Of a DNA stretch of 64,000 nt, positions 1 through 64,000 are shown in pieces. Within the stretch, counting starts at the first letter, position 1; the number at the start of each line of letters is the position of its first letter. Under the pieces are notes generated by a model, which saw only the letters and a program-made list of their open reading frames with translations, did no database searches and was not told the DNA's origin. Source of the DNA: a virus. The DNA lies in the IMG/VR virus record IMGVR_UViG_3300042691_008788, positions 64,001 to 128,000 of that record; one strand, written 5' to 3'. The position numbers and the translations under genes were made by a program.

Positions 1-142
1 CAATGAGAATAGTTTCGCCAGTCGTTCCACCAACATACAACAACGCATCGGTGACATTGACGGCAAGTTCACCGAATGTCAAACCCGAAGGTATTACACC
101 TCCAGTTGAACCTCTCTTGATCTTGATGGTGATATCAGACAT
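1..142 (-). CDS. N-terminus of a tail fibre/virion protein (runs off the window edge)
   Basis: Not in the ORF track. ATG at 142 after AGGAGA; translates as MSDITIKIKRGSTGGVIPSGLTFGELAVNVTDALLYVG, a typical phage fibre N-terminal motif; late-type promoter upstream. Confidence 0.75.
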   Translation of the reverse strand, partial: MSDITIKIKRGSTGGVIPSGLTFGELAVNVTDALLYVGGTTGETILI

Positions 143-160
143 AGTTCTCCTACTTTTACT

Positions 161-168
161 TATTTATC
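161..168 (-). promoter_or_regulatory. T4-type late promoter (GATAAATA)
   Basis: Resembles the TATAAATA late consensus; directly upstream of the RBS/ATG at 142. Confidence 0.6.
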
Positions 169-387
169 CTAGAAAAGTCCACCGTCCAGCACAGATGGAA
201 ATGATCCTGTCGCACCTGTTGCTCCCTGTGGTCCTGTAGCACCCGTTGATCCTTGGGGTCCAGTTGCACCAAGGTATCCAGTAGCAGTTGATACTTTGTC
301 CCAAGCAGAGCCATTCCATGCCCATGTGATGTTTCCATACACATAGGTCTGATTGAGTGAGGGGCTGTTGGGAAAGTTTATCGACAT
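169..387 (-). CDS. small virion/fibre-associated protein with short Gly-X-Y run
   Basis: INFPNSPSLNQTY..WAWNGSAW motif, GATGPQGSTGATGPQGATGATG, C-terminal LDGGLF; TAATG-coupled to the upstream gene. Confidence 0.7.
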   Translation of the reverse strand: MSINFPNSPSLNQTYVYGNITWAWNGSAWDKVSTATGYLGATGPQGSTGATGPQGATGATGSFPSVLDGGLF

Positions 388-1622
388 TAGACTAATTCAA
401 ACCATGAGAGATCGCAATAAGCATTCAATCCGTCTTCAGTTGGTGTCAATGTGAGAACAAATGTATCGGATACTCCTGTTTGAGTTCTCCCGAGTTGGAA
501 GTTGAAATCATTTATATTCGAAATATCAAGTGATCCGCTGCTGCTGATGTATCCGCCGATGATATCGGTTCCACCAGTGACTTCTGTTGCTGTTACATTA
601 TAATCAACATTTCCATTGAAATGTGTTGACCAGGTATTTCCCGTCAAAGTTGGATTCAGAAGAATCCTGTATTGAACCGTGACTGGCTTGTTGTTTGTTC
701 CTGGCTCAAGGACCACGCTTATATTTGAAGGAATGATCACCGAATCAATACGATTTGGATTCAGCCTTATCGCCATCATGGGATACTGAACATCCTGAGT
801 TGTAAGGGTGGTGGGATTTGAACCATTCTTGGTGATGTTATATCGTCTGCTGAATCCTTCGTATCCACCTTCACTCATGACCGTGGTGCATATTTGGTGC
901 AATGTACTTCCACTTGCCTGTGCCGTCTTGTTCTCAAGTTCATATCTGCAAGGAAGGACTGCCGTTGTCATGTATGTCGTTGGATGCACATTGTCGTTGT
1001 GGAATGTGTGTGCCACCACAGGTTTTCCATCAACGAAGAATCCTGTACGCACATCACCAACACCGAGCCATTCAATGTCCGTCCAGAAGATGTTTCCCTT
1101 GGTGATATCAATCGTTCTACCCGATGTTCCGCTTCCATCGAACACATCTCCATTCCAAGATGATTGCTCCACTTTTGTGATCGTATTCAATGACTGACTT
1201 GCAAGGCATATGGATAGGGTTAGTCCATCCTGCTGCAAGTAGACTCCATTGGCAGGAGTTCCAAATGTTGCTCCACCAGAGATGCCAAAGTATCCAACTC
1301 TCTGTAGCAATCCATCCTTTGGTTGGTTCATTGCGAATGTGTTGATCACCAACAGGGACTTTCCTGGCTGATATGCAAATACGCGCTTAGTCTCTCTAGT
1401 GACTTTGCTACCCGCCGTTGTCCCAACAGAAAGAAGTACAGCACTTTCATTCACCGCATATGTGGCAGTTCCACCAGTGACACCAAAGGTATCCCACTTG
1501 TCATTCGCCTGATATCTGTGCTGTGAATCGAAGAGTGTGAATGGCTGAGACACCTTGAGGCGATTGAAGCCATCTACCGCATTCGGAACGAATCCAACCT
1601 GATTGTTGAAAAGATAACTCAT
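387..1622 (-). CDS. putative virion structural protein (beta-rich)
   Basis: ~411-aa G/T/S-rich ORF; ATGA overlap with the collagen gene favours a start at 1622. Confidence 0.6.
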   Translation of the reverse strand: MSYLFNNQVGFVPNAVDGFNRLKVSQPFTLFDSQHRYQANDKWDTFGVTGGTATYAVNESAVLLSVGTTAGSKVTRETKRVFAYQPGKSLLVINTFAMNQPKDGLLQRVGYFGISGGATFGTPANGVYLQQDGLTLSICLASQSLNTITKVEQSSWNGDVFDGSGTSGRTIDITKGNIFWTDIEWLGVGDVRTGFFVDGKPVVAHTFHNDNVHPTTYMTTAVLPCRYELENKTAQASGSTLHQICTTVMSEGGYEGFSRRYNITKNGSNPTTLTTQDVQYPMMAIRLNPNRIDSVIIPSNISVVLEPGTNNKPVTVQYRILLNPTLTGNTWSTHFNGNVDYNVTATEVTGGTDIIGGYISSSGSLDISNINDFNFQLGRTQTGVSDTFVLTLTPTEDGLNAYCDLSWFELV

Positions 1623-3214
1623 ATGATTCTCCATCCATTCCTATAGATCATCTGTATGGCTCCATTGTTCAGATTGAGTATCGCGCTGCTCTGATTGTCG
1701 ATGTAGTGCCCAGTAGAACCTTGTATCGTGATTTGCCTATGCACTCCATCACCAGCATGACCGCTCTCGTCTTTCACCACCATCTCCTTGCCGTTGACTA
1801 TGTTGCCAGGAAGTATGACAGTCACAGGACCAGCATAACTCACACCGATGTAGTAGTCATTTGGAGAGGCATAATAGGTAGCACCCGTGATTCCTGTGGT
1901 GTTGTAGACCGCATTCAATGCACCATTGCCTATGAAGTCAACCCATATGATTCCAGAGTCGTCTGTAACGGCATGGTAGAGAAGACCAGCATCGGTATCG
2001 AACCACATGTCTCCTGCGGACATGCCAGTGGGAGCATTGTCCTGCTCATAGAAGTGAACGGTTCCCGATCCACCACCACCCGTGATGTTGACGATGACAC
2101 CGCCACCAGACTGAGTTACTGACACCCCGCTACCACGGAAGTCGATGTCATTGATGGTGGAGCGAATGTACTTGCCATTCAACTTTACACCAACGCCACC
2201 ACCCGATGCAGCAAGCCAATCCAACTTGGACAAGTCGAAGTTCTTGTTTGCAAGCGGAGCAAAGATGTGCTGCAACTTCTCAAGAAGGTTCTTGCTGTCA
2301 AGGGTGACTATCTTCTTTGTCTTGTCATAGACAAGTGGGTATTGAACATCGATGATGGCATCTTCACCAGCATCACCCTTTTCACCCTTGTCGCCTTTGT
2401 CTCCCTTAAGACCTTGAGTACCGACATCACCACGAAGACCCTGCGGACCTACTTCGCCCCTCTCGCCTTTCTCGCCCTTTGGACCTTGGAGTCCCTGCGG
2501 ACCCCTTTCTCCTTTTTGACCTTTGATGCCGCGTTCGCCCCGTTCTCCTTGGAGTCCTCTTTCTCCCCGCTCTCCTTGGAGTCCTTGCGGTCCTTGTGGA
2601 CCGACTTCTCCTTGGTCGCCCTTTTCGCCTTTTTGACCTTGGTCGCCTTTTGGTCCTTGTTCTCCTCTTTCTCCTTGGAGTCCTTGTTCCCCCCGCTCAC
2701 CTCTTGGACCAGGCTCGCCAGTATCTCCCTTTTCGCCTTTCTCGCCGCGTTCTCCCTGCGGCCCCTGTTGTCCCTGCGGCCCAACTGGACCTCTTTCTCC
2801 AGGGAAGCCAGTATAGCCTCGTTCTCCGCGCTCACCTTTTTCCCCCTTTGTACTCGGTATTCCACCAGTTGCTTTACTTTGTTCCGTAATCGCTTCAGGC
2901 TTTTCTTTCCGAGTCTTCTGCTCATGGGGCTTCTCCTTTGGAATACTCCTCTCCACAAGTGAGAACATCATGTCTATCTTCAGGGGATCTCCCTTGAGGA
3001 TAACATGTCCGACATCTTCATTGAAGAGACAGAGTCTACAACTGCCTTCACCTTTTTTGTAGATCGCGGGGAACACGGCTTCCGATTCGGAAACCACGGA
3101 GAACTGCATTCCACGCGGGACATCCTTTAGGTTGGCTGTCAACGAGAAAACATCGCCAAGTTGTCCCTTGGAGATGCTTCCTGAGCCAATGAAGCCGCTA
3201 AAGTTGTCTTGCAT
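1619..3214 (-). CDS. collagen-like (Gly-X-Y) fibre protein
   Basis: 54 uninterrupted Gly-X-Y triplets; C-terminal fibre-type motifs ([30 protein letters not shown]). Confidence 0.85.
2360..2845 (-). repeat. collagen Gly-X-Y coding repeat (54 triplets)
   Basis: GEK GER GER ... GDA GED; 9-nt periodicity. Confidence 0.95.
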
Positions 3215-3236
3215 CCTATGGAAAACCCTCTCGTCC

Positions 3237-6551: not shown

Positions 6552-6579
6552 AGTATAGTGTGAGATCAAGTGATGTCAA
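6552..6579 (-). promoter_or_regulatory. sigma70-like promoter for gp41, probably leaderless
   Basis: TTGACA-16 bp-TATACT, 7 nt before the ATG. Confidence 0.75.
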
Positions 6580-7495
6580 GATTCTTTATCCATTCCTCTA
6601 CAGATATTTTTGGTTCCCACTTAAGTTTGGATGTTATTCTTTGAATGTTTGCCTCTGTGATCTTTGCCTCACCCTGTCTTGGCGGTAGGAATACAAATGG
6701 TTCATTGCTATCCCATCGTTCTTGCATGAGTTCCGCAATCTTTCTGATTGTTATGCTCTTTCCCGTACCAACATTATAAACAGTTCCATTTTGTGGTTCA
6801 TTTGATTCAGCACCAGCAATCAATGCCCTACAAACATCCTCAACATGGATGAAGTCCCTGCTTTGGTGTCCATTGCCCGTGATAGTAAGTGGCTTGCCCT
6901 CTTTTAGAAGTCGCTGAAAGATTCCCATCACAAGAGCATACTGACCCTTCTTTGGCATTCGGTTTCCATAGATGTTGAATCCTCGGAAGCACACAGTGTC
7001 AAGTCCATAGTTCGTAGAGTACATCTTGCAAAGTTGTTCACCGAAATACTTGGAATATGAATATGCATTCAGACAATCAGGAACATCCCATTCGAGATTT
7101 GGAGGTTCGCAGAGTCCATAGATCGCAGAGGTACTCATGAACACCATGCGAGAAGCACACCCATTATCATGTTTTCTACACAAAGAAAGCATTGTTTGTG
7201 TACCCATGACATTTGTTTCCATGCAGCGACTAGGGTCATTCATGCAGTTCTGTATACGAGCCTCTGCTGCAAGATGAAAGACCACATCGGGTCTGTGTCT
7301 TTCAAATACCTCGCTGCACATAACATAATCAGTTATGTCATAGTGGTAGTACATTACATTGGGATTGAAGTAGAACTCATCGTGAGCATCGGATGAAAGA
7401 TTATCGATGCCTACGACTTCATGTCCCTGCTCGACAAGCATATCGACAAGATTGGAGCCGATGAATCCGCAGGAGCCTGTTACTAGGTATTTCAT
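6566..7495 (-). CDS. NAD-dependent nucleotide-sugar epimerase/dehydratase (extended SDR)
   Basis: VTGSCGFIGS, VFHLAA, YSYSK (YxxxK), GHQSRDFIHVEDV. Confidence 0.92.
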   Translation of the reverse strand: MKYLVTGSCGFIGSNLVDMLVEQGHEVVGIDNLSSDAHDEFYFNPNVMYYHYDITDYVMCSEVFERHRPDVVFHLAAEARIQNCMNDPSRCMETNVMGTQTMLSLCRKHDNGCASRMVFMSTSAIYGLCEPPNLEWDVPDCLNAYSYSKYFGEQLCKMYSTNYGLDTVCFRGFNIYGNRMPKKGQYALVMGIFQRLLKEGKPLTITGNGHQSRDFIHVEDVCRALIAGAESNEPQNGTVYNVGTGKSITIRKIAELMQERWDSNEPFVFLPPRQGEAKITEANIQRITSKLKWEPKISVEEWIKNLDIT

Positions 7496-7501
7496 AAAGC
7501 A

Positions 7502-7529
7502 AGTATAGCGCGGGATCAGCGAGAGTCAA
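7502..7529 (-). promoter_or_regulatory. sigma70-like promoter, probably leaderless
   Basis: TTGACT-16 bp-TATACT, 6 nt before the epimerase ATG. Confidence 0.7.
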
Positions 7530-8146
7530 GACTTCCTTACAAGAACAATATTTTCAGCGTTCAGAGCGGCAGCATCATACTTGTCTTTAAATTTATCGTA
7601 GATAGCCTGATACTTTCCATCATGTTCTATAACGATTGCATCAACATCAAATCGTTCAAAATCAAACTTCATGGAAAGATCAAAACTGGTTCCTTCAACA
7701 TCAATGGACACCAAATGCAACTTTTGTGGTAGGAAAGTATATAATTCTTCCAATGATATTGTTGATGCCACATAAGGAACATGCTTTCTTCCAAGATGGT
7801 TCAGGTAGCCAGCCCACTTATCCTTATGCCATCCCTCAGTAGTAGTTAGCGCACCATCAGTTCTATCATCCTTCGGTACCAACCAAGACTTGATGGGCGG
7901 TGTCTTTTCAAGCGTGACTGCTGCACCAACTATCAGAATCTTGTCGTTGGTCTTGTATTCATTCACAAGATCAACAAGACTATAGGGAGACATGTCCACC
8001 ATGACTCCACCCCAACCCTTCTCGACCAATGCACGGGTGTTGGATAGATTCTTTGGGTGAAATGCTCCGATTTCAAGGAAAGAGCCATTTGGAATATTTG
8101 AGAAAAATGTTGCAAGAATATCATCTTCATTATTTTGAGCGTACAT
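7526..8146 (-). CDS. FkbM-family SAM methyltransferase
   Basis: MYAQNNED, FLEIGAFHPKNLSNT, GWGGVMVD, VSIDVEG; probable start 8146. Confidence 0.85.
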   Translation of the reverse strand: MYAQNNEDDILATFFSNIPNGSFLEIGAFHPKNLSNTRALVEKGWGGVMVDMSPYSLVDLVNEYKTNDKILIVGAAVTLEKTPPIKSWLVPKDDRTDGALTTTEGWHKDKWAGYLNHLGRKHVPYVASTISLEELYTFLPQKLHLVSIDVEGTSFDLSMKFDFERFDVDAIVIEHDGKYQAIYDKFKDKYDAAALNAENIVLVRKS

Positions 8147-8576
8147 GCGTTCTCCATTCTTTTGCGTAATCAGTGCATACTCCCCACATTTGAGGAATGT
8201 CACCTTCGGGCTTTCCCAACCACACCGTGACACCAAGACGAGAGTGGTTGTCAGGATACATCCACAACAATCCATCACTCGTCAGGGTCATCTTGTCCGT
8301 TTCATGCCAGAAACAAGTTATGCCATATGACGAAACGATCATTTCCTCAAAGGCTTCCTTGTTCTTTGCATGACACCACAAAGACTTTCCACGAAACCAC
8401 CAAGGATCAACAAAGTATGTCGGAGCATCATGCCCAAGAAAGAACTGACCATCGACATACCAAACATCCACTTCTACATCGAACCCAAGATCCAAAGCCT
8501 GTTGGATATAGGTTGGATTGTTCTCACACTCAGGTTTCCTACCATCTAGATTGCCACGATGAGATATAATTTTCAT
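8130..8576 (-). CDS. short glycerophosphodiester phosphodiesterase-like protein
   Basis: IISHRGN, EN, GFDVEVDVW, LGHD, WCHAKN, GVCTDY. Confidence 0.8.
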   Translation of the reverse strand: MKIISHRGNLDGRKPECENNPTYIQQALDLGFDVEVDVWYVDGQFFLGHDAPTYFVDPWWFRGKSLWCHAKNKEAFEEMIVSSYGITCFWHETDKMTLTSDGLLWMYPDNHSRLGVTVWLGKPEGDIPQMWGVCTDYAKEWRTHVRSK

Positions 8577-9289
8577 TACTTTCTACCGAGGAAAGAATTC
8601 AAATCTTCGGGGGTTCCTATTCCATGCATCCTGTGTACAAAGAAAGGAATCAGTGTCTTTCCAGACTGAATCAGTTCATTGTAGACAGGGGCGATATAGA
8701 ACTCGTTGTTCACCCGTATGTTCTTCTGAATCATTGTCTCAGCACAAGAAACAAACTCAGAACCCCTGCGATACCAGTAGATGCCACAGGTTGCAATGTC
8801 TGATATCGGATTCTTTTCGGCAACCTCAGTGACAACTCCCCGTGAATTTGTCTTCACGAAAGACCACTTGGGATGTACGGCATGAAAGGTGAATACTATC
8901 GCATCGGCGGCAGTAAAGTTCTTGAGATAGTTGAAGTTCTCAGGACTATATTCGATTATCTGATCCGAATTTGCTATTAACAGATCCTCGTCGTTGTTGA
9001 TGTATTCCTTGGCGAGCAATGCCGTACATGCCGCACCTTCAGTTAAACCATCCACCTCGACAACCTTGTATCTCCCATTAGTAATCCTCGCAAGGGTTGT
9101 CTCCAACCCAGCGTACTTATCAAGATGCTCCTTGCGAACAAGGAAGATATACTCTGCATCGAAGTCGAGATTCTCGACAACGCGCTGAATCATCGGTTTG
9201 CCTTCCACATCAATGAGAGGTTTTGGGAAGGTATATCCTTCCTTTGCGAACCTACTACCTTCCCCAGCCATTGGTATTAAAATCTGCAT
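8576..9289 (-). CDS. sugar/polyol-phosphate nucleotidyltransferase
   Basis: IPMAGEGSRF..PKPLI, TEGAACT, IANSDQ, EVAEKNPIS, GTPEDL. Confidence 0.88.
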   Translation of the reverse strand: MQILIPMAGEGSRFAKEGYTFPKPLIDVEGKPMIQRVVENLDFDAEYIFLVRKEHLDKYAGLETTLARITNGRYKVVEVDGLTEGAACTALLAKEYINNDEDLLIANSDQIIEYSPENFNYLKNFTAADAIVFTFHAVHPKWSFVKTNSRGVVTEVAEKNPISDIATCGIYWYRRGSEFVSCAETMIQKNIRVNNEFYIAPVYNELIQSGKTLIPFFVHRMHGIGTPEDLNSFLGRK

Positions 9290-9918
9290 AGTTCTTTGTA
9301 ATAATAAAGCCCATCAACAAAATTTGTGTAACTCTCTCTAGTCACTTTTGTTGAGTTATCAACTTTCCAAATATATTCTGCTAGGCTGCTCTTTGCAGAT
9401 TGCAAACCAAACATAGAGTCCTCAACACAAATGCACTTTTTAGGATTTGCGTTCATCTTTCCGATTGCCAAATTATAACAGTCTGGATGAGGCTTGTTTC
9501 TATTCACCATTTCGTTACTAACGATAAGATCAATAAATGGAATTTGTCCAGTGGCAGTAAGCATCTCTATTGCGGTGTCTCGTATTGAGTTTGTGACACA
9601 TGCTATTTTGATATCCAAAGACTTCAAATGCTGATGTAGTTCGATCTTCTCTGGCATAAGAGTAGCATTTTTCCTGATGACATCAATAGTGTGTCTTTGC
9701 TTTTCCTCATTAATCTTTTCAGCGATTTCTTTTGGCACATTCATCATTTGTAACTTTATCCGCGTTGGTAATCCATTATATGTCGATTCATGAGCATTCC
9801 TGCTGATTTCAGGATAGCCATGTTCTTTTAGGGCCATATTCAACGCCTCGTAGTGCCATTCGCAGGCGTCCACAAGAACTCCATCCAAATCAAAAAGAAC
9901 AAAATCAATATCTACCAT
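9277..9918 (-). CDS. HAD-superfamily phosphatase
   Basis: FDLDGVLVD, VTNS, KPHP, VEDS. Confidence 0.9.
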   Translation of the reverse strand: MVDIDFVLFDLDGVLVDACEWHYEALNMALKEHGYPEISRNAHESTYNGLPTRIKLQMMNVPKEIAEKINEEKQRHTIDVIRKNATLMPEKIELHQHLKSLDIKIACVTNSIRDTAIEMLTATGQIPFIDLIVSNEMVNRNKPHPDCYNLAIGKMNANPKKCICVEDSMFGLQSAKSSLAEYIWKVDNSTKVTRESYTNFVDGLYYYKELCRF

Positions 9919-9919
9919 T

Positions 9920-10630
9920 TCAGTATTGCCTCATGTTTGGACTATTAGCATAATAAAAAGACTCATCTAGTCTAACTATCTCAGAATCGAATAGCGTCTG
10001 ACATATGTCAAATAGATTTTTGTGTGTGTCTACGAAAGAGCGGGTGTTATACACTTCATGTGAAAAGAGACGAAGTAGATGAGAAGATTTCCCAATCATG
10101 ACTCCATCATGAAGATGATCCTTCATCTGAGAAAAAACTAGCAGATCTTTGTCTGTTTTGCTGAATCTACTAATTGAGTCATTTATGTAATCTATCGAAG
10201 AGGGCTTGTGCGGAAATATATCTGGTCTTGTGAGTATCACTATATCATCCGACAAAGATGGTTGTGTTGACAAGAACTGATTCAATGCCATGTAACGATG
10301 CAAAATTTGCATCTTGTAACTAGACTCTCTGTAATATGGTCTTTCTTTACAAACGGGCAGGGTCTTATATTGAGATAACAGAAGATCTCGCGTCGATAGA
10401 TCTATAAAATCTACGGCATCAAAAAACTCAAGATCCATCAGTTTTTGTAGATTTACCTTAGAAGTGTCCGCAGACATAGTTTTATCCATGTCTCCTGTCC
10501 ACCATCCGAGTTCTTCGTGCGTAAAAATAACTCTTTTTTGACAAAGAAACCTTGATAGATGTCTCTCTATGAATGGTGTGGGGTTGGAATAAAAGTTTCT
10601 CAGATGTCCAGTGACGAAAAGAGTAGGCAT
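9920..10630 (-). CDS. hypothetical protein, possible glycosyltransferase
   Basis: LFVTGHLRNF, IFTHE, ILTRPDI pattern and island context. Confidence 0.5.
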   Translation of the reverse strand: MPTLFVTGHLRNFYSNPTPFIERHLSRFLCQKRVIFTHEELGWWTGDMDKTMSADTSKVNLQKLMDLEFFDAVDFIDLSTRDLLLSQYKTLPVCKERPYYRESSYKMQILHRYMALNQFLSTQPSLSDDIVILTRPDIFPHKPSSIDYINDSISRFSKTDKDLLVFSQMKDHLHDGVMIGKSSHLLRLFSHEVYNTRSFVDTHKNLFDICQTLFDSEIVRLDESFYYANSPNMRQY

Positions 10631-10631
10631 G

Positions 10632-11210
10632 TCATTTTCTCCGCACTATGAACATCAAGTCATCGTAACGACCCTTTGTTGCTCGCAGATCAACTATATC
10701 GAACTCATCTGTCTCTTGTTTTACTTTCTCAAATGCATTACAAAGAACTGGCATCCAATCGATTGACTGTACATCTTCTATTGCAAGAACTCCACCACTG
10801 TTAAGTTTACGAAGATAGATGTTAATACAAGATACCATAGAGTCTAGGGTGTGTGGTCCATCATCTATAATGATGTCGAAATTTGGCAATCCATCTGAAA
10901 CTCTAGAGTTGTATGCGTCATCTATTGTGATAACTATGTTATCGTTTTGCAATGCTTCTTGGACAATCTTCCCACCATAATTGTCAAGTCCATAAACCCC
11001 AGTGTGATTAGAAAAATACTTGTCCCACAAGAGCAGCGAATGACCAGAAGCGATTCCAATCTCAAGGATTTTTACTGCCTTGTCCCTATATTTGGAAAAC
11101 TCCTGCTCATAAAAGCCGTCAATGTAGTTGTGTGTGGTATTTTTGTCGGTGGCAACTCCACATTCCCCCGACCACTTGCTTTCATTCAATATTTCGTTCA
11201 AAGTTTTCAT
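10632..11210 (-). CDS. class I SAM-dependent (sugar O-)methyltransferase, MycE-like
   Basis: TDK..HNY..Y, ILEIGIASGHSL..W, FDIIIDDGPH, GGVLAIEDV. Confidence 0.85.
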   Translation of the reverse strand: MKTLNEILNESKWSGECGVATDKNTTHNYIDGFYEQEFSKYRDKAVKILEIGIASGHSLLLWDKYFSNHTGVYGLDNYGGKIVQEALQNDNIVITIDDAYNSRVSDGLPNFDIIIDDGPHTLDSMVSCINIYLRKLNSGGVLAIEDVQSIDWMPVLCNAFEKVKQETDEFDIVDLRATKGRYDDLMFIVRRK

Positions 11211-11233
11211 AGTTATTTTCTCAATCAAAATTT

Positions 11234-12397
11234 TTAAGAGTAAATCTGTATCTCAGGGAGCAGAACCACTATCTTTCCTCCAAATGATTGCCTGAGAGAG
11301 TGTATTATGTGATCTTTGAAGTTGTGTATCAGCACTATGATGTAGTCTGGTTTGTCTGTATTTATACGAGTTCTATCAACAACTTCTAACTTTGTTCCTG
11401 GAATAAACTTTCCTTGCTTACCTGGAGTGTCATCAACAACATAGAGAAATTGATCAACAAGAGATTTATCTATGCAATTTAAATAGACACAACTCTTAGC
11501 CCCAGCACCGAAACAGGCAACCCTGCCACCATTCAATAGACTTTGGATGAATATCTCATCGGATTCTATTTTATTCCTAACAGACTTTCCCCACGAAGCA
11601 AAATCAAAATCTTTCTCTATTTGAATATAGTTTTGAACTTCGTCAATATGACCTCTACCTCTGTTTGTAGACACCACTCGGATAGTTCCTCCGTGGATAG
11701 GATGTTCTGTTATAGAAACTATACTCAACCCATATTCAGAAAACAACTTGGCTAAAGGGGTTATTAGCCAGTAAAAGTAATGCTCATGATATATCTGATC
11801 AAATTGATTCGTCTGTGCGGTTCTTAAAAAATACGGAAATTCTAAAACCCAAACCCCATCTAAGTTTGATTTTATAGACCTCAAAAACCCATGGACATCC
11901 GAGTTGTGTTGAAACACATTAGTAGACACAATGAGATTTGCTTTTCCATCAATTTTGCAATCTGCCCAGAACTTTCTCTCATAGATGATGCCCGATGCTA
12001 TGTTTTCTTCCACAAAAGAAACGCTTGGATCAACATTGATAAGTCTTGTCTCAACTCCATCTGGCATCCTCTCCTTAAACACCTTAAGAAGAGTTCCATC
12101 ATTTCCTCCTATATCTACAATCGTAGAAATCTCTTTAGCATACATCGAAAGATGCTTTTTAATGTCGTTCCACATTGCTCGGCAATGTTGCTTATACGGC
12201 TCGTTCACAGAAGACCTATAGAGATATTCGTGAAACATCTCTGTTGGGTCAACCTGTGTGTCCAAGCGAAATATCATGTCTTCCTCAACCATTTTCAATG
12301 AATATCTTTTGGCAGAAATGGAAGATTCAGCAGTTGTTTTCAGGTTATTTGCCAAAGGTATTGTGTTCAGATCAAGTATAGTTCGTTCGTTGCTCAT
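11234..12397 (-). CDS. NDP-sugar C-methyltransferase-like protein
   Basis: YLYRSS, VDIGGNDGTLL, NVFQH, FDQIYHEH, IHGGTIR, FGAGAK, VDDTPGKQGKFIPGT. Confidence 0.9.
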   Translation of the reverse strand: MSNERTILDLNTIPLANNLKTTAESSISAKRYSLKMVEEDMIFRLDTQVDPTEMFHEYLYRSSVNEPYKQHCRAMWNDIKKHLSMYAKEISTIVDIGGNDGTLLKVFKERMPDGVETRLINVDPSVSFVEENIASGIIYERKFWADCKIDGKANLIVSTNVFQHNSDVHGFLRSIKSNLDGVWVLEFPYFLRTAQTNQFDQIYHEHYFYWLITPLAKLFSEYGLSIVSITEHPIHGGTIRVVSTNRGRGHIDEVQNYIQIEKDFDFASWGKSVRNKIESDEIFIQSLLNGGRVACFGAGAKSCVYLNCIDKSLVDQFLYVVDDTPGKQGKFIPGTKLEVVDRTRINTDKPDYIIVLIHNFKDHIIHSLRQSFGGKIVVLLPEIQIYS

Positions 12398-12415
12398 TTC
12401 TGTTCTCCTCGAAAA

Positions 12416-13099: not shown

Positions 13100-13111
13100 A
13101 ATTTAGAACTC

Positions 13112-17034: not shown

Positions 17035-17070
17035 AGTGATTAACATCCCCTACTGATTTTATTATCCAAT

Positions 17071-51146: not shown

Positions 51147-51154
51147 TATTTATT
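51147..51154 (-). promoter_or_regulatory. late promoter (AATAAATA)
   Basis: Upstream of gp19, overlapping the stop codon of the second sheath gene. Confidence 0.6.
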
Positions 51155-53900: not shown

Positions 53901-53911
53901 TTTCTCTCCTG

Positions 53912-55819
53912 TTAGATGATCTCAGTAAAGGTGCTATCTGTTCTTGTTGCAATGAAGTTCAACTGAATGAAGTTGATAGACCGCGCTGGCTTAATGTAAA
54001 TGTCTGCCACGAACTGATTGCGGTCGATGACTTCTCCAGTGTTATTGGTTTCATCACAAATCACTCTGAAGTCGGTGATACCTCTTTGTGCCTGAACATT
54101 ACGGAGATATGGAATGGTAAGGTTCCTGAACTGTGAGCGAGTAAACTCATCATTGAATTCGAACAATGAGTATTTAGCGGCTGTGGAGATTGCTTTTTCA
54201 AGGGTGATGAAAAGCCGCCTGACATTGATGCGGTCAAATGCACTTGGCTTCTTCAACATGGTCTTGTCGCCAAAGAGGATGGTTCCCTCTCCGCTGAATG
54301 TAGCAACTGGATTTACATTTGCGACATAGAGAAGATCTCTTGCTGCTTGGTCTGGATTGAATGCCAACTTGATGACATTCTTGACTGTTCCTCTGTTTAG
54401 ACCCGCTGGAGAAAACCAAGATTGTGTTGCAAACTCTGCACGGGCGCAAATACCAGCAATGTCAGCATTGAGCGGAACATAGCGGAACATGTCATTGTAC
54501 TTGTCGTAGATATATTTCCAACCGCTATCCATCACGACATAGGAGGAATTGATTCCGTATGTTGTGTTTCTTGTGGTAAGAATGTTATTTGTTGCGACTG
54601 ATTGTGTCTTGTTTAGAACATCTGTAAGAAGTGGAGACACAAACAACACGCAATCCTTGCGTTCATTTACAAGATCAGATAGCAACTTTACTGTGGTTGC
54701 ATCAGATCGACCAGAGATAAGAAGAGAAATATCAACATTGTCTCGGTCGATGAACTTGCTGTATCCCTTAGTGTAGATATTTGCTGTCGATGAAGCAGCA
54801 CCAGTGCCTCCGCTAAGGCTATAGCGAGAAACCTTGGCAGCAGCATATCCACCGCTGATATCAGAGAATGTGGTTGTAAGATCTTGTGGAACAGATGCTC
54901 CCCAAAGTGTCTCAAGATTACCAGCCCAAATGTAGTTCGACTGTGAGTTGATCACCGACGAAACATAGTTTGGTGCGCCGTCATTGTCCCGAGCATCATA
55001 TGCCTTGGAGACATTTTGGAATGTCTCAAGAATCGTACCCTTGGTTCCCGTGAATAGACCATCTTCGTCAATGACTACGACATTGAGTTCGTCATTAGAG
55101 CCACCCTTTGCGGAGGCTTGTGTGCTTGTTTCGGCTGTGAGTTGGAATAGATCGGCATACTTACTGCGGAACTTGACATCCGCACTTAGACCGATGACGC
55201 TTGCAACATATGTCTTTGTTGTGACCGTGTTTCCCGCTGCCGAATCGACAAGGAATGTCTGAGAGAACTGATTTGTCTGATAGATCAACTTGTCATTTTC
55301 TTCAAGAGTTCCGCCAAGAACTGTTGAGAATCTGATGGTATTTGTTCCGATTGTTGCTGTTGCTCCAACCACAACAGAAGCCTCACCATTGCCGTCTAGA
55401 ACCACGACTTTGAGTGAATTTCCCAAAACACCAGGATAACGAGCATAGAAGGAAGCAGTTAGACCAGATGCGGCCTCACCACCAAGAACATCCTCATTTA
55501 CATACTGCAAGCCCGTAAAGCCAGAGGAGTTTGCATTTGTTTCATCAGATCCAACAGCACGAACAATCCGAAGGTCACGACCATACTGAAGGAAGTTTGC
55601 TGCACAGTGAAAATCTATTCCGTTTTCATCCCTTAAGGGCTTTCCAAAGATACGGACTAGATCGTCTTCTGAAGTTACGGTTACTATTTTTTCTGCTGGA
55701 CCCCATTGAAAGACTCCCGCGATGGCACCAGTGGCAGTTGCCACATTTGGAACAATCGTCGTAAGATCAATTTCCGAATAATTCACACCAGGGCTAAGTT
55801 GTACAGGTATTCTGCTCAT
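53912..55819 (-). CDS. gp18: tail sheath protein
   Basis: SPGVNYSEIDLT, FQWGP, ANFLQY, WFSPAGLNRG, FGDKT, SAFDRINVRRLF, KPARSINFIQLNF. Confidence 0.97.
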   Translation of the reverse strand: MSRIPVQLSPGVNYSEIDLTTIVPNVATATGAIAGVFQWGPAEKIVTVTSEDDLVRIFGKPLRDENGIDFHCAANFLQYGRDLRIVRAVGSDETNANSSGFTGLQYVNEDVLGGEAASGLTASFYARYPGVLGNSLKVVVLDGNGEASVVVGATATIGTNTIRFSTVLGGTLEENDKLIYQTNQFSQTFLVDSAAGNTVTTKTYVASVIGLSADVKFRSKYADLFQLTAETSTQASAKGGSNDELNVVVIDEDGLFTGTKGTILETFQNVSKAYDARDNDGAPNYVSSVINSQSNYIWAGNLETLWGASVPQDLTTTFSDISGGYAAAKVSRYSLSGGTGAASSTANIYTKGYSKFIDRDNVDISLLISGRSDATTVKLLSDLVNERKDCVLFVSPLLTDVLNKTQSVATNNILTTRNTTYGINSSYVVMDSGWKYIYDKYNDMFRYVPLNADIAGICARAEFATQSWFSPAGLNRGTVKNVIKLAFNPDQAARDLLYVANVNPVATFSGEGTILFGDKTMLKKPSAFDRINVRRLFITLEKAISTAAKYSLFEFNDEFTRSQFRNLTIPYLRNVQAQRGITDFRVICDETNNTGEVIDRNQFVADIYIKPARSINFIQLNFIATRTDSTFTEII

Positions 55820-57997: not shown

Positions 57998-58004
57998 GAT
58001 AAAA

Positions 58005-60464
58005 TCACCTTCCTACGAACTGATCCGTAGATCTATACTCCGCTAGAGTAGTTATCTTATTATCTGAGAAATATTCAGACGCAGCGACTAACTGCTCCTT
58101 TGTTAGTTCGAAATATGCATCTCTCATTATTGAATATGCAACATTTATATTGTTGTTTGTTGTTGTCTGCCATCTATCTCGTAGATTTGTGTTTTTATAA
58201 AGTATTGATTCTTCATTTAGAGGAACCGCATACCACAGAAATTCACCATTGAAACCATAGGGTATCTTTGTATTACCACCCGTCAGACCAGTGTTTGATT
58301 CAAATACTCTATAATCACTAAATCTACCAGATCTAAATGTGTTTAGATAGTTAGAGTGATCTGCTTCAGCAGCAGTAAGCCCAAAATCAAAAAGTTGTTC
58401 TGAAAATGTCATCTGAAATTGCAGTTGCTGTAGATTAAAGAAATATGTCTCCAATCCACGAATGAATGCTGTGATCGGATCAGAACCAGATATACCGCGA
58501 TTAGTCACAACTTTTGTATACTCATCGCTCCCTCTTGCAATATTTCCAAGATAGAAACCTTGATATAGTAAATTATCAACATCGTTCTTCATGATGAATC
58601 CATTTGCTGGAACAACACTATTGAACAGTGGTTTTACTAAGTATTCAACAAAATCTTCTGGTCTATAGGGGACTGACCCGCCGCGAGTAAGATCATAATC
58701 TTCATTTCTACCAGAGAGAACGGGCATGATTCTGTAGTTGAACTTGCCGCGCTCATCAAGGAGGAGTTTCCACATCTTCAATGCTGAATGAATACTTGCC
58801 TTCATCGACTCCTTAAGGTTATACAGTCTTTCAGCGGTATTACCACCAAAGTCTTGGTGAATGGTGCAATCTCTTCTTGAAGTGTGATTTCTTGTTATGC
58901 TATTCTGATAAGAACCCTTCAACTGCATTGGAATATATGGATTGAAGCGGGGATTAAAATCCATGGCAAAGAAATTCATATCCTTATAACCACCATATTG
59001 CAACTGTTCTGCATAGATGTCATAGTAGTATGAATCAAGGAAATTCATCGTTGTTCCAAGTGGACCTCTAGGACCATTGTTGTCTGTAAACAACTTTAGA
59101 ATATTTGCTGGAACAAGTTTTGATGCTTCATATGTGTTTGAGGCAGCAGTTGTAGAACCACCAAGCATAAAATATTCGGGATAGAAAGATGAGTTTCCTG
59201 TGAGAGACTTGTGGTAAGAGTTCCAGCCCGAAGAACCACCAGAACCACCGAATGATGTCGCACCAGTTGATCCAAGATAGTTGTATGTTGATGGTGGTGG
59301 GTAGAAAGTAACACCCGCTATCCTGTTGAGATAAAACGATGCACCAACGCTTGCATATGGTCCCGTGGCATCGGTCGCTGTTCCTGGCGTTGGTATTTTT
59401 GCCGACCAGCCAAACACGGATGTAGTGTATGGATAGTTGTACTGACCAGTATTAAGATCAGTTGCCGTTGTTCTATATCTTCTCGGATAAGTCTTCACTT
59501 CAGAGAAGAATCTTTCATTGAAACTCTTGGCAAGATTGAAGCCATCAAGATTGATGTACGAACCAGTTTTACCAGAGGAACGAACTAATTCAACATTCCA
59601 CCCAGGATTTGCAGAGTTTCCTGCATACTGAGAAATAATATTAGTTGCTGTATCCGTATAGTCATTGTCAGAATATTTGATGAACTGATAGTGAGGCTCA
59701 AATGAAGTCAATATGCCAGAGAATGTAATTCCTCTATCCAACAGTATTGCAAGATTTCTTCTTGTTGAGAAGAAAATATCAGGCGTGAAATACATGGATT
59801 TCACTGATTGTGTTATACCATTGCTTGCAGACAATCCAAAATATAGAGGTGAGTCTAATGTTCCTGTTGGTAGGTTATTTGTGTGGGTCAATCCAAGAAT
59901 AGAGGGACTGAACATTAACTGAAATGGTGTTATTACACCGCCGAAGTTCACAAGTGTATAGGTTCCTGCCGATGCACCTTTAAGAGTAACTCCAGTAAAT
60001 GCTGTGACACCATAGGGCTGATTTGCACCAGTTATGCTATAGAACTGAGGATATTGTAGAAGTATGTTCGTGTTATCTTGCAGAGAGTTGAATGCGCCAT
60101 AGGAGTTGGTTCCTGTGATAATTCCATACTCCGAACTCTCAAGTTGATCCATGTCATAGACCATCTTGTGTTTCAATGATAGCATCTGCGTTACACCAGC
60201 GGTAAATCTGGCGTACTCATATGTCAATCCGTCATCCGCTGCCGATATTCCTTGAGCAAAGATTGTTACATCTTCAGTTGGTGCAAGATATGGAATAACA
60301 TCTCTACTAAAGAATATTACTGGAGTTATTTCTTTCTGCTCGACCGTGATGCGAATTTTTTTGATTGTATTAGCCGTTGTCAAATCAGCAGACTCAGTAG
60401 CCACAGTTATGATGCGGTACTGATCAAGGAATCCGTCTAGGTTTCTCTCTGCTGTTGATGGCAT
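58005..60464 (-). CDS. 819-aa hypothetical, probable virion protein
   Basis: TAATG-coupled to gp15; G/T/S/Y-rich with many G-x-T/S motifs; no recognised family. Confidence 0.7.
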   Translation of the reverse strand: MPSTAERNLDGFLDQYRIITVATESADLTTANTIKKIRITVEQKEITPVIFFSRDVIPYLAPTEDVTIFAQGISAADDGLTYEYARFTAGVTQMLSLKHKMVYDMDQLESSEYGIITGTNSYGAFNSLQDNTNILLQYPQFYSITGANQPYGVTAFTGVTLKGASAGTYTLVNFGGVITPFQLMFSPSILGLTHTNNLPTGTLDSPLYFGLSASNGITQSVKSMYFTPDIFFSTRRNLAILLDRGITFSGILTSFEPHYQFIKYSDNDYTDTATNIISQYAGNSANPGWNVELVRSSGKTGSYINLDGFNLAKSFNERFFSEVKTYPRRYRTTATDLNTGQYNYPYTTSVFGWSAKIPTPGTATDATGPYASVGASFYLNRIAGVTFYPPPSTYNYLGSTGATSFGGSGGSSGWNSYHKSLTGNSSFYPEYFMLGGSTTAASNTYEASKLVPANILKLFTDNNGPRGPLGTTMNFLDSYYYDIYAEQLQYGGYKDMNFFAMDFNPRFNPYIPMQLKGSYQNSITRNHTSRRDCTIHQDFGGNTAERLYNLKESMKASIHSALKMWKLLLDERGKFNYRIMPVLSGRNEDYDLTRGGSVPYRPEDFVEYLVKPLFNSVVPANGFIMKNDVDNLLYQGFYLGNIARGSDEYTKVVTNRGISGSDPITAFIRGLETYFFNLQQLQFQMTFSEQLFDFGLTAAEADHSNYLNTFRSGRFSDYRVFESNTGLTGGNTKIPYGFNGEFLWYAVPLNEESILYKNTNLRDRWQTTTNNNINVAYSIMRDAYFELTKEQLVAASEYFSDNKITTLAEYRSTDQFVGR

Positions 60465-61126
60465 TATTCGTCCGTTAGTTCTCTGAATGTAAGGTCGATT
60501 TCTCTAATGAGTCCAGACTGTCTGATTGGTCCGAAGATGTATGACTTGGTTTGAAAAATCAAAGAATGCGTTATGAGTCTTCTATCATTTAGATCACCCT
60601 CATAATCCTCAACTGTATTGACTGATGACAGTATAACTGGCACATCAACTCTTCTATCTAGTTCTGTGAAATTCATGCTGATAGTGAAGTCTGGTGTGAA
60701 GTATGGCAGTATCTGTTCTATGATCTGATATCCATCATCTATGTTACGATTCATTATATTGAGAGTAAACTCAATGTTGTATGGAACCTCGCTATAAGCA
60801 TATGAGATTGTTCCGTCTGTTTCGTCTCTGGCAGAATAAACCTTGTTAAGACTATTCAATTTTCTATTTGTGTCGTATACCATCGATGATATCTCAAACG
60901 ACATTCGTGGCAATATATTTTCAAAACTGCTTCTGGCTGGATCAGCCTCATCAAGTTCCTTAATCTTTCGGACAAACTTTTCTTTTGGTCCATATGATAT
61001 CGGGACTTTGATTTTCTTCAGTTCAGTTCCAGCAGAGTCTTTGCGGGAGATGTATATCTCGTTGAATAGCGAGCCAAAAGCCACTACAAGTTTTCTTATA
61101 CTACCATGGTAGAAGTATCGAAACAT
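60464..61126 (-). CDS. gp15: tail sheath stabiliser / tail terminator
   Basis: YFYHGSIRKLVVAFGSLFN, KVPISYGPKEKF, LPRMSFE, QIIEQILPYFTP. Confidence 0.95.
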   Translation of the reverse strand: MFRYFYHGSIRKLVVAFGSLFNEIYISRKDSAGTELKKIKVPISYGPKEKFVRKIKELDEADPARSSFENILPRMSFEISSMVYDTNRKLNSLNKVYSARDETDGTISYAYSEVPYNIEFTLNIMNRNIDDGYQIIEQILPYFTPDFTISMNFTELDRRVDVPVILSSVNTVEDYEGDLNDRRLITHSLIFQTKSYIFGPIRQSGLIREIDLTFRELTDE

Positions 61127-61980
61127 CAGTAGTTGCCCTCTGAGAATGGATCCTTATCGGTGAAATCAATGATGTCTAGAGTTGCTCTTTCTTTCTCTAG
61201 TTCATCCCCATCATCATTGTTAGCATTCACAAACTTCTTTTCAGTAGTAACAAGAGAATCATATGAAGCAAATGCGTTTGATTTTTCTCCGCGTATGAAT
61301 ACAAGAGAAGATGGAGTTCCTGTTTCCGTGTGAACTTGAATTGCATTAGTGAGAGCGTTGAAGTTCAATATCGTTGCAGACCAAGAAGAACTTCCGAGAC
61401 AGATTCCTTGATATATCTTCTCACCCTCAAAGAAGGCACCACACACTCCACTGATTGTGAATTCTCTGACATCTGTGAGAATGTTCTGTTCAATGTCATC
61501 AACTTCCTTGATCTCAGTATCAATCTGCTCACCAGAGTAGCGGAAGAGTTCGCAGGAAATCTCGTAGGCAAAGAATGAATTTCTTGATCCAACATACTTA
61601 ACTTCATAGATTCCGCCATACTCAGGAAAGTAGATTAGATCGCCTTCCTGTGGCTTGGTATCGGTGCCATACTTGGCGGCTTCTTCGCTAAATCTCTTTT
61701 TGGAAACCATTAGAGTCACGGAATCCTGAAGATTGATTCCGAATTTATCCATGATCTTATTCTGCGTTTCAAAGAACTCGTAGTTTGAAACAAACATCTC
61801 TATCTGAAAACTACGATCAAACTTTGATATGGTATCTTCACCAAACAGATTGTCTAGATTCTGAAACTTGCGAAAGATATAATGGACATCGAAGCCATAG
61901 ATCTTTATCTGCTCGACCACAAGTTGTTCGAACAAATCTGACTCGCGTGATGATACCTTAAAGTAGTTGTTGCGAGCCAT
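61126..61980 (-). CDS. gp14: neck protein
   Basis: EQIKIYGFDVHYI, LFGED..SKF, KFGI, PQEGDLIYFP, CELFRYSGE, IDFTDKDPF. Confidence 0.93.
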   Translation of the reverse strand: MARNNYFKVSSRESDLFEQLVVEQIKIYGFDVHYIFRKFQNLDNLFGEDTISKFDRSFQIEMFVSNYEFFETQNKIMDKFGINLQDSVTLMVSKKRFSEEAAKYGTDTKPQEGDLIYFPEYGGIYEVKYVGSRNSFFAYEISCELFRYSGEQIDTEIKEVDDIEQNILTDVREFTISGVCGAFFEGEKIYQGICLGSSSWSATILNFNALTNAIQVHTETGTPSSLVFIRGEKSNAFASYDSLVTTEKKFVNANNDDGDELEKERATLDIIDFTDKDPFSEGNY

Positions 61981-62751
61981 TTATCCCACCATGAAATCTG
62001 TTGGAAGTTCGTACTTGCTTTGGACCGTGTCTTCAATCTGAGTCAACTCTGTCATGGAATCATTGTACATGCTACGAGAATCAAACTGCATTCCGCCTGG
62101 TAGAGCGATGTTGGAGAATTTGCTTAGGTTGGAAGCCCATTGTCTCTTGATGAGTGCCGTGACATACTTCTTGAGGAGTATGTCGTTGTATATCTCTGGA
62201 TAAGTCTCTGGATTCAATGCCACATAGGCTTGCACCATCAACTTATCACCAACTCCAAAAGTCTCTGACCAATCTGTATTGATCTTCAACTTGTTGGTAA
62301 CACGGCTGAATCCAACACTCTTCTCTGGACTTAGGAACTGCTGTAAAAGAGAAAGATATTGCTTGGTTGTATCGTAATAAGATAGATTGGATGTACCCGT
62401 TAGAAAGCCGTTGAAATAGTCATTCAACATCAGTTGATACTGAACACTGAACATGCCGCTTTGTACGGCTTGATCTACGATGAATACTTTAGTGATGCTT
62501 ATGATGTTTCCACCAGATGAACCAGCCGAGATATTGTTGGTGTTGATGTACTTGTTATCAATATCTGTTTGTGTTATGACATATGGGAGATATGCCTCTT
62601 CGACACCATCAAAATGGTACTCAGAGAAAAACTGCAATGCATCGTCTATACGATCCTCTACTTGAGCATCATCGACATTGATCTCAATAACGGGAAATCC
62701 GAGCCTTCTTAGAGCATAGTCCTTGAGTTCTTCTCTTGTGGTTACTGCCAT
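61981..62751 (-). CDS. gp13: neck protein
   Basis: TREELKDYALRRLGFPVIEINVDDAQVEDRIDDALQFF.EYHFDG, LKKYVTALIKRQW..NLSKF. Confidence 0.95.
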   Translation of the reverse strand: MAVTTREELKDYALRRLGFPVIEINVDDAQVEDRIDDALQFFSEYHFDGVEEAYLPYVITQTDIDNKYINTNNISAGSSGGNIISITKVFIVDQAVQSGMFSVQYQLMLNDYFNGFLTGTSNLSYYDTTKQYLSLLQQFLSPEKSVGFSRVTNKLKINTDWSETFGVGDKLMVQAYVALNPETYPEIYNDILLKKYVTALIKRQWASNLSKFSNIALPGGMQFDSRSMYNDSMTELTQIEDTVQSKYELPTDFMVG

Positions 62752-62753
62752 GT

Positions 62754-63038
62754 CTATCTCCCTTTGTTACGAAGATTCTCAAGGTGTCTTTCGTCTATTT
62801 CTCTTTGTGCCTTAGCCATTCTAATTCCAACAACATTGGATACTATCTTTTTCATGGTTTGATCTAGTGATTCAACTGCCCACTGATTTCGTCCATCGGA
62901 TTTGAAATGTCTTCTGCCATCATAATAATGAATCAGACTGTCGGGGACATACTCTGGTACCACGGATCGTATGTCTTGAATCAAGAAAACTTCACCGTCT
63001 ATAGTTGCTGTATTTTCACATCGTCTAAATGTAGTCAT
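62754..63038 (-). CDS. small hypothetical protein
   Basis: 94-aa ORF packed between neighbours on the coding strand. Confidence 0.55.
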   Translation of the reverse strand: MTTFRRCENTATIDGEVFLIQDIRSVVPEYVPDSLIHYYDGRRHFKSDGRNQWAVESLDQTMKKIVSNVVGIRMAKAQREIDERHLENLRNKGR

Positions 63039-63047
63039 AGTTTAAAC

Positions 63048-64000
63048 TTATATTTCCGAAAGAATGGCATCCTCATTTCCAAGCGATTCATATGGACTGC
63101 CTGTTGCCTTGGCTCCCTTGCCTGTAGAAACACTCTTCTTGGTTGTTGCTGAATTTATAGAAGAAACAGAATCAAGTTTACTCTGAACAAGTTTGTTGAA
63201 GTAATCCAACAGATCAAGTCTAAGATTGTATATCTGTTGTGCATTCAATGTTCTATTGAAGTTAAGACCATCAGTAAAAGAATATGATGAACGGCATATA
63301 CCAAGTCCAGCAAGTTCACCATTCCTCAAAATGAAAGACAAAGTTTCGGTGTCGAGAGGATTCAAGAACAATGCACTATGATTGAACGATATTCCATAGT
63401 AGTTTCCACCGCATGAACCAAACAAGCGTCCAAATGGATTGGTTCCTAGTGATGACTTGGACACATTACCAGAGGATCCTTTGTTTCCAGATGCTCCTTC
63501 AATGAAGTAGAATGATTCGATCATTGCTTCATACATGGCATTGTAGCGGTAGTTGGATCTGAATGTTTCTAGAGTAACACCGAGATCAGTAACTGAGTAA
63601 ATATCAAACACATAATCATAACCATGTACAGTTGATCCTGGTGTTGTTGCATAAGGGAAAACAAGAGGACCATATCCCATAGAGAAACCAGTGTCATCTG
63701 TATATCCAGTAGCACCGCTTATTCCATATTGATACCTGTAGATGTCGCGAATGCCGACATCAGCAACTGTTGCTGTGACTGGCGCACCAGAAGGCCCAAG
63801 CACTAGATCAGATATTCTAGTGACCACCCCGATCATTCTGTCCTGACTCTCTGCATAGAACGAATCAACATCTTCAAGACCATTGAAGTTCATCACAAAA
63901 CATATTTCTGAACTTGTGGTGAATCCAGTAAGAGTCGGAACACCTAGAGTATTTCCATAGAATCCATATGCAGTTAGTAGTCCACCAGTAACATCGGTGT
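63048..64000 (-). CDS. probable virion/tail-associated protein (5' end outside the window)
   Basis: The frame of the 282-aa ORF stays open to the edge (..TDVTGGLLTAYGFYGNTLGVPTLTGFTTSSEICFVMNF..); G-x-T/S/C rich. Confidence 0.65.
   Translation of the reverse strand, partial: TDVTGGLLTAYGFYGNTLGVPTLTGFTTSSEICFVMNFNGLEDVDSFYAESQDRMIGVVTRISDLVLGPSGAPVTATVADVGIRDIYRYQYGISGATGYTDDTGFSMGYGPLVFPYATTPGSTVHGYDYVFDIYSVTDLGVTLETFRSNYRYNAMYEAMIESFYFIEGASGNKGSSGNVSKSSLGTNPFGRLFGSCGGNYYGISFNHSALFLNPLDTETLSFILRNGELAGLGICRSSYSFTDGLNFNRTLNAQQIYNLRLDLLDYFNKLVQSKLDSVSSINSATTKKSVSTGKGAKATGSPYESLGNEDAILSEI

Follow-up and report, generated by a model that had tools for sequence, protein, structure and literature searches.

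A putative Gly-x-Thr glycosylation sequon on outer virion proteins of freshwater T4-like phages that encode a GT2-TPR glycosyltransferase

Introduction

In Clostridioides difficile, the GT-TPR enzyme SgtA adds N-acetylglucosamine (GlcNAc) to Thr in collagen peptides of BclA3, a collagen-like glycoprotein of the spore, and in synthetic peptides a single GAT, GPT, or GAS site suffices as acceptor (PMC7157674). Enzymes of the SunS/ThuS type modify Cys or Ser of peptides (PMC12457901). We analyzed 64,000 nucleotides of the virus record IMGVR_UViG_3300042691_008788 (positions 64001-128000 of 156.6 kb, completeness estimate 86%; hereafter the window), which encode a GT2-TPR glycosyltransferase and virion proteins rich in the motif G-x-T. 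The virus is an uncultured T4-like myovirus with identifiable genes for sheath, capsid, neck, and replication, and near-identical DNA is present in freshwater metagenomes of about a dozen studies. A first-pass annotation, made from the sequence alone, had proposed that G-x-[T/S/C] is an O-/S-glycosylation sequon used to coat the particle.

By architecture and acceptor motif, the phage system may work like SgtA-BclA3, which is a likeness and not a claim of membership. In both, a GT-A (GT2) domain is followed by TPR, the genome also carries a gene for a (G-x-T)n collagen-like protein (here a 1066-aa fibre), and the acceptor is Thr/Ser in G-x-T/S, by proposal in the phage and including single sites in short peptides for SgtA. 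The product is the surface coat of a dormant particle to which other enzymes add further sugars, and the same is proposed for the phage. In SgtA-BclA3, however, the sites lie in one collagen region adjoining the enzyme gene, whereas in the phage they are scattered across numerous virion proteins that are not collagens. SunS-type enzymes, which had been named as the precedent, share the fold and domain order of the phage enzyme (TM about 0.55) and are its closest solved folds. But the identity is 15-20%, the SunS family profile TIGR04195 scored 38.8 bits, below its cut-off of 350, no glycocin precursor/transporter cluster was seen, and the proposed targets are large structural proteins. Thus the closest precedent is SgtA-BclA3 (GxT, O-GlcNAc) and not SunS alone.

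In some mycobacteriophages, phage-encoded glycosyltransferases coat the virion, with glycans at the C-termini of capsid and tail-tube subunits (Freeman et al. 2023, as summarized in PMC11600133 and PMC12619734). As far as these summaries and the other literature found go, virion glycosylation in tailed bacterial phages is documented only in some mycobacteriophages, at C-terminal sites. Our phage likewise encodes glycosyltransferases (GT2-TPR, GT7, GT10, and GT-like open reading frames (ORFs)). Unlike in mycobacteriophages, the motif is internal and repeated, and lies on sheath, baseplate, fibre, and accessory proteins, with the tube lacking it; placement on capsid and tail-tube subunits was not found, which concerns the motif only and not other sites. 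The chlorovirus capsid is glycosylated at atypical sequons (PMC9614988). There, as proposed here, the virus's own enzymes glycosylate the particle at their own sequon, but the linkage is to the nitrogen of Asn, the virus is a eukaryotic giant virus, and the capsid protein has four to six sites.

Motif enrichment in virion proteins

All 31 motif strings that had been named were found in the proteins to which they were assigned, in the copy numbers given. G-x-[T/S/C] was counted against shuffles preserving the composition of each protein, and also against shuffles within 40-residue local windows and within secondary-structure classes. Accessory virion-like proteins have 402 motifs versus 268 in shuffles (z 10, or z 9.5 with 40-residue local shuffles) and outer core proteins 132 versus 109 (z 2.7), whereas the 42 non-virion proteins have 96 versus 88 (z 1.0) and internal proteins 11 versus 15. 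This confirms that the enrichment is real, exceeds composition, and is confined to outer proteins; the replication enzymes show no enrichment, in line with the earlier by-eye judgment.

All gapped residue pairs were also ranked, with collagen runs masked, to guard against by-eye pattern choice. In the virion-like proteins G.T was first of 1,925 pairs (248 versus 146, z 8.5) and G.C was 40th (17/9). G.S ranked 218th (169/154) and was not significant, so plain G-x-S is not enriched. By the shuffle test in this genome, the spacings GT, GxxT, GxxxT, and TxG and the motif N-x-S/T showed no enrichment either. The codons are mixed, and thus the motif does not originate from a DNA repeat. Autoproteolysis at T/S/C was considered and dropped, since dozens of cuts per structural protein seem implausible.

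The proteins that carry the motif are as follows, all on the minus strand.

30877-37695: 2272-aa orphan with a C-terminal beta-helix; 63 G-x-[T/S/C], and 6 of its 23 Cys in G-hydrophobic-C
58005-60464: 819-aa protein with a predicted TIM-barrel, glycoside-hydrolase-like fold and long insertions; 30 motifs
1-142: start of the 1066-aa fibre, which continues beyond the window start; (GAT/GPT)n collagen runs and dispersed GxT
63048-64000: C-terminal part of a 646-aa virion-like protein whose gene extends to window position 64988; 24 motifs
387-1634: 415-aa virion structural protein (phrog_1645); 15 motifs versus 8.4 expected
51150-53900: long tail-sheath protein gp18 (916 aa); 19 of 20 motifs within residues 107-612, none in the C-terminal 300 residues
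53912-55819: short tail-sheath protein gp18 (635 aa); most motifs fall in the region that corresponds to T4 outer domains I-II
61126-61980: neck protein gp14; its variable C-terminal part has two G-x-C sites; the protein is not significant by itself

The 2272-aa protein (63 versus 36, z 5.3), the 819-aa protein (30 versus 12.5, z 5.6), the 1066-aa fibre (84 versus 40), and the 646-aa protein (24 versus 15, z 2.9) each have a strong excess; that of the short sheath is borderline (z 2.0). The long sheath (20 versus 16), gp14 (3 versus 2.8), and the capsid protein (10 versus 8.2) are not significant alone. Thus the claim of a motif running across the named virion proteins stands for the strong group but not for the long sheath and gp14 taken singly.

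The 2272-aa and 819-aa proteins are presumably virion components, judging by gene position and composition. The 819-aa model best matches the hyaluronidase Ves v 2 (Z 14.8; 282 residues aligned with an rmsd of 4.8), and on this modeled fold the protein is possibly a virion-borne depolymerase. A viral-structure search with the 819-aa model gave no match, and an Atlas search with part of the 2272-aa protein gave weak leads only. The 819-aa orphan sits between gp15 and gp16 and has few homologues (36 by one count); in all 41 full-length homologues the motif ratio is 1.8-2.5. The two gp18 genes are in tandem (51150-55819), and close relatives have the same arrangement. The collagen runs of the 1066-aa fibre consist of 19 GAT and 9 GPT triplets. 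A second collagen (531 aa, 1619-3214) has charged triplets (GER, GEK, GPQ) and is nearly Thr-free, and thus contrasts, within one genome, with the fibre's GxT collagen.

Residue specificity

Around GxT, x favours Leu and Ile and disfavours Asp, Glu, and Pro, and the next residue favours F, A, G, L, and Y. We therefore compared residues Z in G-hydrophobic-Z-[FGYAL], which is the context of the first-pass annotation plus Leu. In this genome the ratios are 4.1x for Thr, 2.0x for Ser, and 8.4x for Cys (n=10), versus 0.4x for Val, 1.0x for Ala, 1.0x for Asn, and 1.2x for Asp. The 11 other GT-positive genomes gave 3.8x, 2.5x, and 2.6x (n=17) for T, S, and C, and 0.9x, 1.1x, 0.95x, and 1.1x for V, A, N, and D, while GT-negative genomes gave 1.1x for Thr, 0.8x for Ser, and 1.7x (n=9) for Cys. 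Val is an isostere of Thr, and Asn and Asp replace Ser and Thr in turn motifs. Since only T, S, and C are enriched, shape or turn-forming alone is insufficient, and we infer that a side-chain nucleophile accounts for the pattern.

The three residues are not equivalent. Thr dominates overall, while enrichment of Ser and Cys shows mainly when the wider context G-hydrophobic-[T/S/C]-[F/G/Y/A/L] is considered. When homologues are aligned, 81% of comparisons retain Thr at G+2, against 58-66% for Thr spaced otherwise from a conserved Gly; 45% of the changes of Thr at G+2 are to Ser and 5% to Cys, and x drifts among hydrophobic residues. G-hydrophobic-C occurs 13 times versus 3.6 expected here and 35 times versus 20 in the other GT-positive genomes. 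True swaps between T/S and C are found in few columns (819-aa positions 79 and 595, 2272-aa position 382, gp14, and the 646-aa protein), and the 17 Cys motif sites of this genome are mostly invariant across homologues. Some sites are ancestral structural motifs, as AGICAR of the short sheath matches AGLCAR of T4 gp18. The proposed interchange of T, S, and C thus holds as joint enrichment in context but not as equality, with Thr carrying most of the signal. Because the Cys sites are few, mostly invariant, and rarely swapped, S-linkage to Cys is a minority possibility that we hold only tentatively.

High G-x-C counts in four relatives (G003, G036, G041, G034) came from Cys-rich GACC repeats, which are probably disulfide modules, and were excluded. 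These genomes and G001 form a sister subclade with large virion-like proteins of up to 14% Cys carrying GACC repeats (e.g. L203-L204, L623). Such Cys-rich proteins are unusual for synthesis in the bacterial cytoplasm. The GACC repeat presumably resembles secreted Planctomycetota proteins, a possible clue to the host.

Placement of the sites

In the 819-aa model, 22 of the 30 motif residues lie in coil or lower-confidence regions and 7 in helices, which is a small difference from the 67 of 121 other Ser, Thr, and Cys residues in coil. The excess remains after shuffling within structure classes (30 versus 13).

The T4 sheath protein has outward domains and an inner core. In the sheaths of the clade that encodes the enzyme, the outer part has GxT at 1.79x and the inner core has it at 0.42x, versus 1.26x and 1.02x in 86 other sheaths. 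The same contrast is seen for G-hydrophobic-T in orthologue sets: 2.19x in outer proteins of GT-positive genomes versus 1.14x in GT-negative ones, 0.71x versus 1.07x in internal proteins, and 0.55x versus 0.85x in replication proteins. The tail tube has 1 motif versus 2.6 expected here, and across the clade G-hydrophobic-T is found 0 times versus 8.0 expected. In replication proteins, avoidance is absent for plain GxT (1.14x versus 1.13x) and appears for G-hydrophobic-T only when genomes are pooled. Among nine clade sheaths, 52 of 66 motif columns, in regions where the alignment is uncertain, are private to one genome. Turnover of private sites is noisy (1.8x in the 819-aa family, 1.5x in gp46, 0.9x in the long sheath) and gives weak support at most.

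The GT2-TPR enzyme

The window does encode the GT2-TPR transferase that had been reported.

24175-25452, minus strand: GT2-TPR glycosyltransferase (425 aa; Pfam GT2 and TPR, AlphaFold2 model), the proposed writer of the first sugar
25480-25486, minus strand: late-promoter-like ATACATA, 28 nt before the GT2-TPR start

Pfam GT2 scored 54.8 bits, above the cut-off, and TPR_19 was below its cut-off, while the model (pLDDT 90.5) has helical hairpins from residue 176. SunS/ThuS took the top six Foldseek rows (E 6e-17 to 2e-15), followed at 1e-7 by glycosyltransferases that do not act on proteins (teichoic-acid and polysaccharide enzymes); TPR folds were also among the matches. The best PDB match by sequence is GmaR (E 2e-14 over the first 108 residues), the GT2-TPR O-GlcNAc transferase of Listeria, whose substrate is flagellin. 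GmaR has the same domain order and, unlike the phage enzyme, an extra anti-repressor domain.

Here the gene is ~24 kb from the GxT collagen fibre gene and not adjacent to it, but in many relatives it directly adjoins GxT-rich fibre genes. Bacterial homologues from several phyla have a collagen run within 10 kb at 17 of 45 loci (a raw count from homologue loci only), and 15 of these 17 runs have at least 30% Thr at the third triplet position. Many of the bacterial homologues (L320-L364) are in Mycobacterium and other Actinomycetota, with most mycobacterial loci having no collagen neighbour, and at one Pirellulaceae locus the collagen is of the G-x-S type. The window also holds, at 37692-38587, a pair of small paralogous ORFs (phrog_1084); in many relatives a homologue of them directly adjoins the GT2-TPR gene.

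The late-promoter-like [AC]TA[AC]ATA has 16 matches in the window, 15 of them on the coding strand and mostly just upstream of genes. These sites (161-55852) precede, for example, gp19, gp18, gp22, gp3, and the fibre, but also primase, regA, gp46, and uvsW, and the 2272-aa gene is downstream of one at 39639. From its likeness to the T4 late promoter, the element may act as a late promoter.

Comparison across relatives

For genome comparisons, proteins of at least 300 aa with at least 30% G+T+S+N were taken as virion-like, and orthologue sets gave the same picture. In 15 GT2-TPR-positive genomes or long fragments, GxT is at 1.39-1.88x, versus 0.83-1.14x in 13 T4-like genomes without the gene, with no overlap. 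Seven of these 13 are cultured phages; several controls were fetched only in part, Pfam GT2 above cut-off being absent in the whole records of nine and the protein being absent in the others. G.T was among the top 5 pairs in 9 of the first 10 GT-positive genomes, and 5 of the 15 positives were reached via polymerase, terminase, or capsid genes and not via the glycosyltransferase. The enzyme is present in 12/12 genomes of the clade and 0/14 others, a comparison that is partly circular. Thus, relatives lacking the enzyme do not show equal enrichment, and the expected link between enrichment and glycan genes holds for GT2-TPR, within one clade, but not for the patchy sugar island described below.

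Two motif-rich genomes (G034, G041) showed no GT2-TPR, but their contigs do not cover its expected place. Four contigs (L466, L477, L478, L491) have no GT2-TPR near regA-pol, but they carry no virion genes. Outside the clade, the cultured Acidobacteriota jumbo phage Tunturi_5 (PP885688; gp35, gp29) has a GT2-TPR homologue adjacent to a GAT/GPT collagen fibre. In two unrelated huge phages with a distant homologue (34% identical), G.T ranks 9th (1.56x, 1.31x). In two GT2-TPR-negative T4-like genomes (G007, G008; L181-L197), the virion-like proteins have Asn-rich motifs (AN, NV, N.T) and N-x-S/T at 1.22-1.27x, which by sequence is possibly another sequon; GT41/HMW1C was looked for as its writer and not found in these genomes.

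The glycan island

A 14-ORF sugar island had also been reported, and it is present.

6566-17046, minus strand: 14-gene glycan island (Pfam, PHROG, and Atlas assignments), a proposed variable chain-extension module

It contains an epimerase, FkbM, C- and other methyltransferases, a nucleotidyltransferase, HAD, GT10, GT7, an RmlD-like gene, and further GT-like and other ORFs, and 9 of the 14 are named by Pfam as sugar-related enzymes or methyltransferases. Its GC content is 37-42% versus about 45% in the flanks. Contigs from two sequencing runs join 16173 to 17075, skipping the RmlD-like gene (16180-17046), so strains without this gene exist and island content varies within the population. The island as part of the motif system is a different matter: it is not tied to the motif, and the link is our inference only, although a patchy island fits a fixed first step followed by variable extension.

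Alternative explanations

Our preferred explanation, which we consider likely, is O-glycosylation of outer virion proteins by the phage enzyme at a dispersed GxT(S) sequon; going by sequence and predicted fold, the particle is probably sugar-coated. Late in infection, GT2-TPR would transfer a sugar from a nucleotide-sugar to the Thr hydroxyl two residues after Gly, preferably in G-hydrophobic-T-[F/G/Y/A/L], with Ser and perhaps the Cys thiol as less frequent acceptors. The usual substrate of the enzyme family may be (G-x-T)n collagen, as in the bacterial SgtA-BclA3 pairs, and in the T4-like clade selection might have spread isolated motif copies over sheath outer domains, baseplate, neck, fibres, and large accessory proteins. 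The resulting glycan coat could serve shielding, adhesion, or stability, and chain extension or decoration is probably the task of the variable island. Doubtful, in our view, is the broader version in which G-hydrophobic-[T/S/C] coats the whole outer virion with mixed O-/S-linked glycans at dozens of sites per protein, is selected against in internal and replication proteins, and is served by an exchangeable island through which strains come to differ in their glycan. The original sequon proposal thus keeps its core, with enrichment, outer restriction, absence in T4-like phages without GT2-TPR, and the fold and neighbourhood of the enzyme in its favour, but S-linkage, co-occurrence, and the island are weaker than it stated.

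Several observations weigh against enzymatic glycosylation of the dispersed sites. All GT-positive T4-like genomes belong to a single capsid-protein clade (99/100 support), so the genome contrast counts once and cause and shared descent are inseparable, and no complete clade member without GT2-TPR was found in the relatives searched. In Tunturi_5 the enzyme accompanies a GxT collagen, yet the dispersed motif is at only 1.03x; thus the enzyme is not sufficient for the dispersed pattern. In the two huge phages, both GT-positive, the refined context is shared only partly (1.02x, 1.61x). This genome itself shows no enrichment in gp15, gp14, or the capsid protein. Avoidance in non-virion proteins falls short of significance genome by genome (p 0.23), and the coil share of motif residues in the 819-aa model is hardly distinctive. 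As for the island's role, only the epimerase recurs widely, and the other genes are patchy among motif-rich genomes.

One alternative treats the motif as a peculiarity inherited in this one lineage, structural or historical (a short turn or strand cap, for instance), with GT2-TPR acting only on the collagen fibre, as perhaps in Tunturi_5. The motif is found in one clade only, Tunturi_5 shows that the enzyme can exist without it, many sites are invariant within a family, and other T4-like sheaths already have the mild outer-domain excess of 1.26x. But proteins of unrelated fold share the excess (sheath, TIM barrel, beta-helix protein, baseplate), enrichment is missing for Asn, Asp, and Val, the private sheath columns argue, within their alignment uncertainty, against a fixed structural role, and orthologues outside the clade fold without the motif; we regard a structural trait as unlikely. 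Composition or by-eye reading of Gly/Thr-rich proteins is refuted as the source of the pattern. Virion proteins are indeed G-, T-, and S-rich, and at least half of single matches are expected by chance, but the excess survives all three kinds of shuffle, the other spacings are flat, and 13 equally G/T-rich control virions show no excess.

The sites might also be modified by another writer (a host or island glycosyltransferase) or carry a non-sugar adduct such as phosphate, phosphocholine, or acyl. The island has a nucleotidyltransferase, an HAD phosphatase, and several ORFs without assignment. However, no island gene is universal among motif-rich genomes, the GT2-TPR family flanks GxT collagens across many phyla, and among clade-restricted genes GT2-TPR ranks first, the second (285 aa, 41373-42230) being rejected as a writer for its resemblance to small non-enzyme T4-like proteins. 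We think a different writer or adduct still less probable than a structural trait. DNA glycosylation and serotype conversion of the host are known roles of phage glycosyltransferases (PMC12619734), and the island lies among replication genes, so the glycan genes could modify phage DNA or the host surface, with the motif unrelated. No thymidylate-synthase-family gene (dCMP hydroxymethylase, PF00303) was found in five genomes with controls working, this genome being an estimated 86% complete, which makes DNA glycosylation less likely; the TET/JBP profile PF12851 matched in no genome, controls included. The GT2-TPR architecture matches protein-modifying enzymes, and the motif would be left unexplained. 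As a full account this is very improbable, although part of the island may have such a role.

Implications

In the literature searched, which excludes most subscription journals, no paper describing a GxT virion sequon was found. New here are the residue-specificity control, the contrast between outer and inner proteins, the comparison of 15 with 13 genomes (within one clade), and the counter-example of Tunturi_5, which is also a ready test system for the enzyme family. If the preferred explanation is correct, a T4-like clade that is widespread in freshwater glycosylates its virions at a recognizable sequon, and thus which virions are glycosylated, and where, would be predictable from sequence. 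The enzyme would then be an O-glycosyltransferase (perhaps also S-) that is soluble, works as a single enzyme, and recognizes a motif of three residues. The explanation would also give a testable purpose to the glycosyltransferase islands that are common in aquatic phage genomes and often filed as auxiliary metabolic genes.

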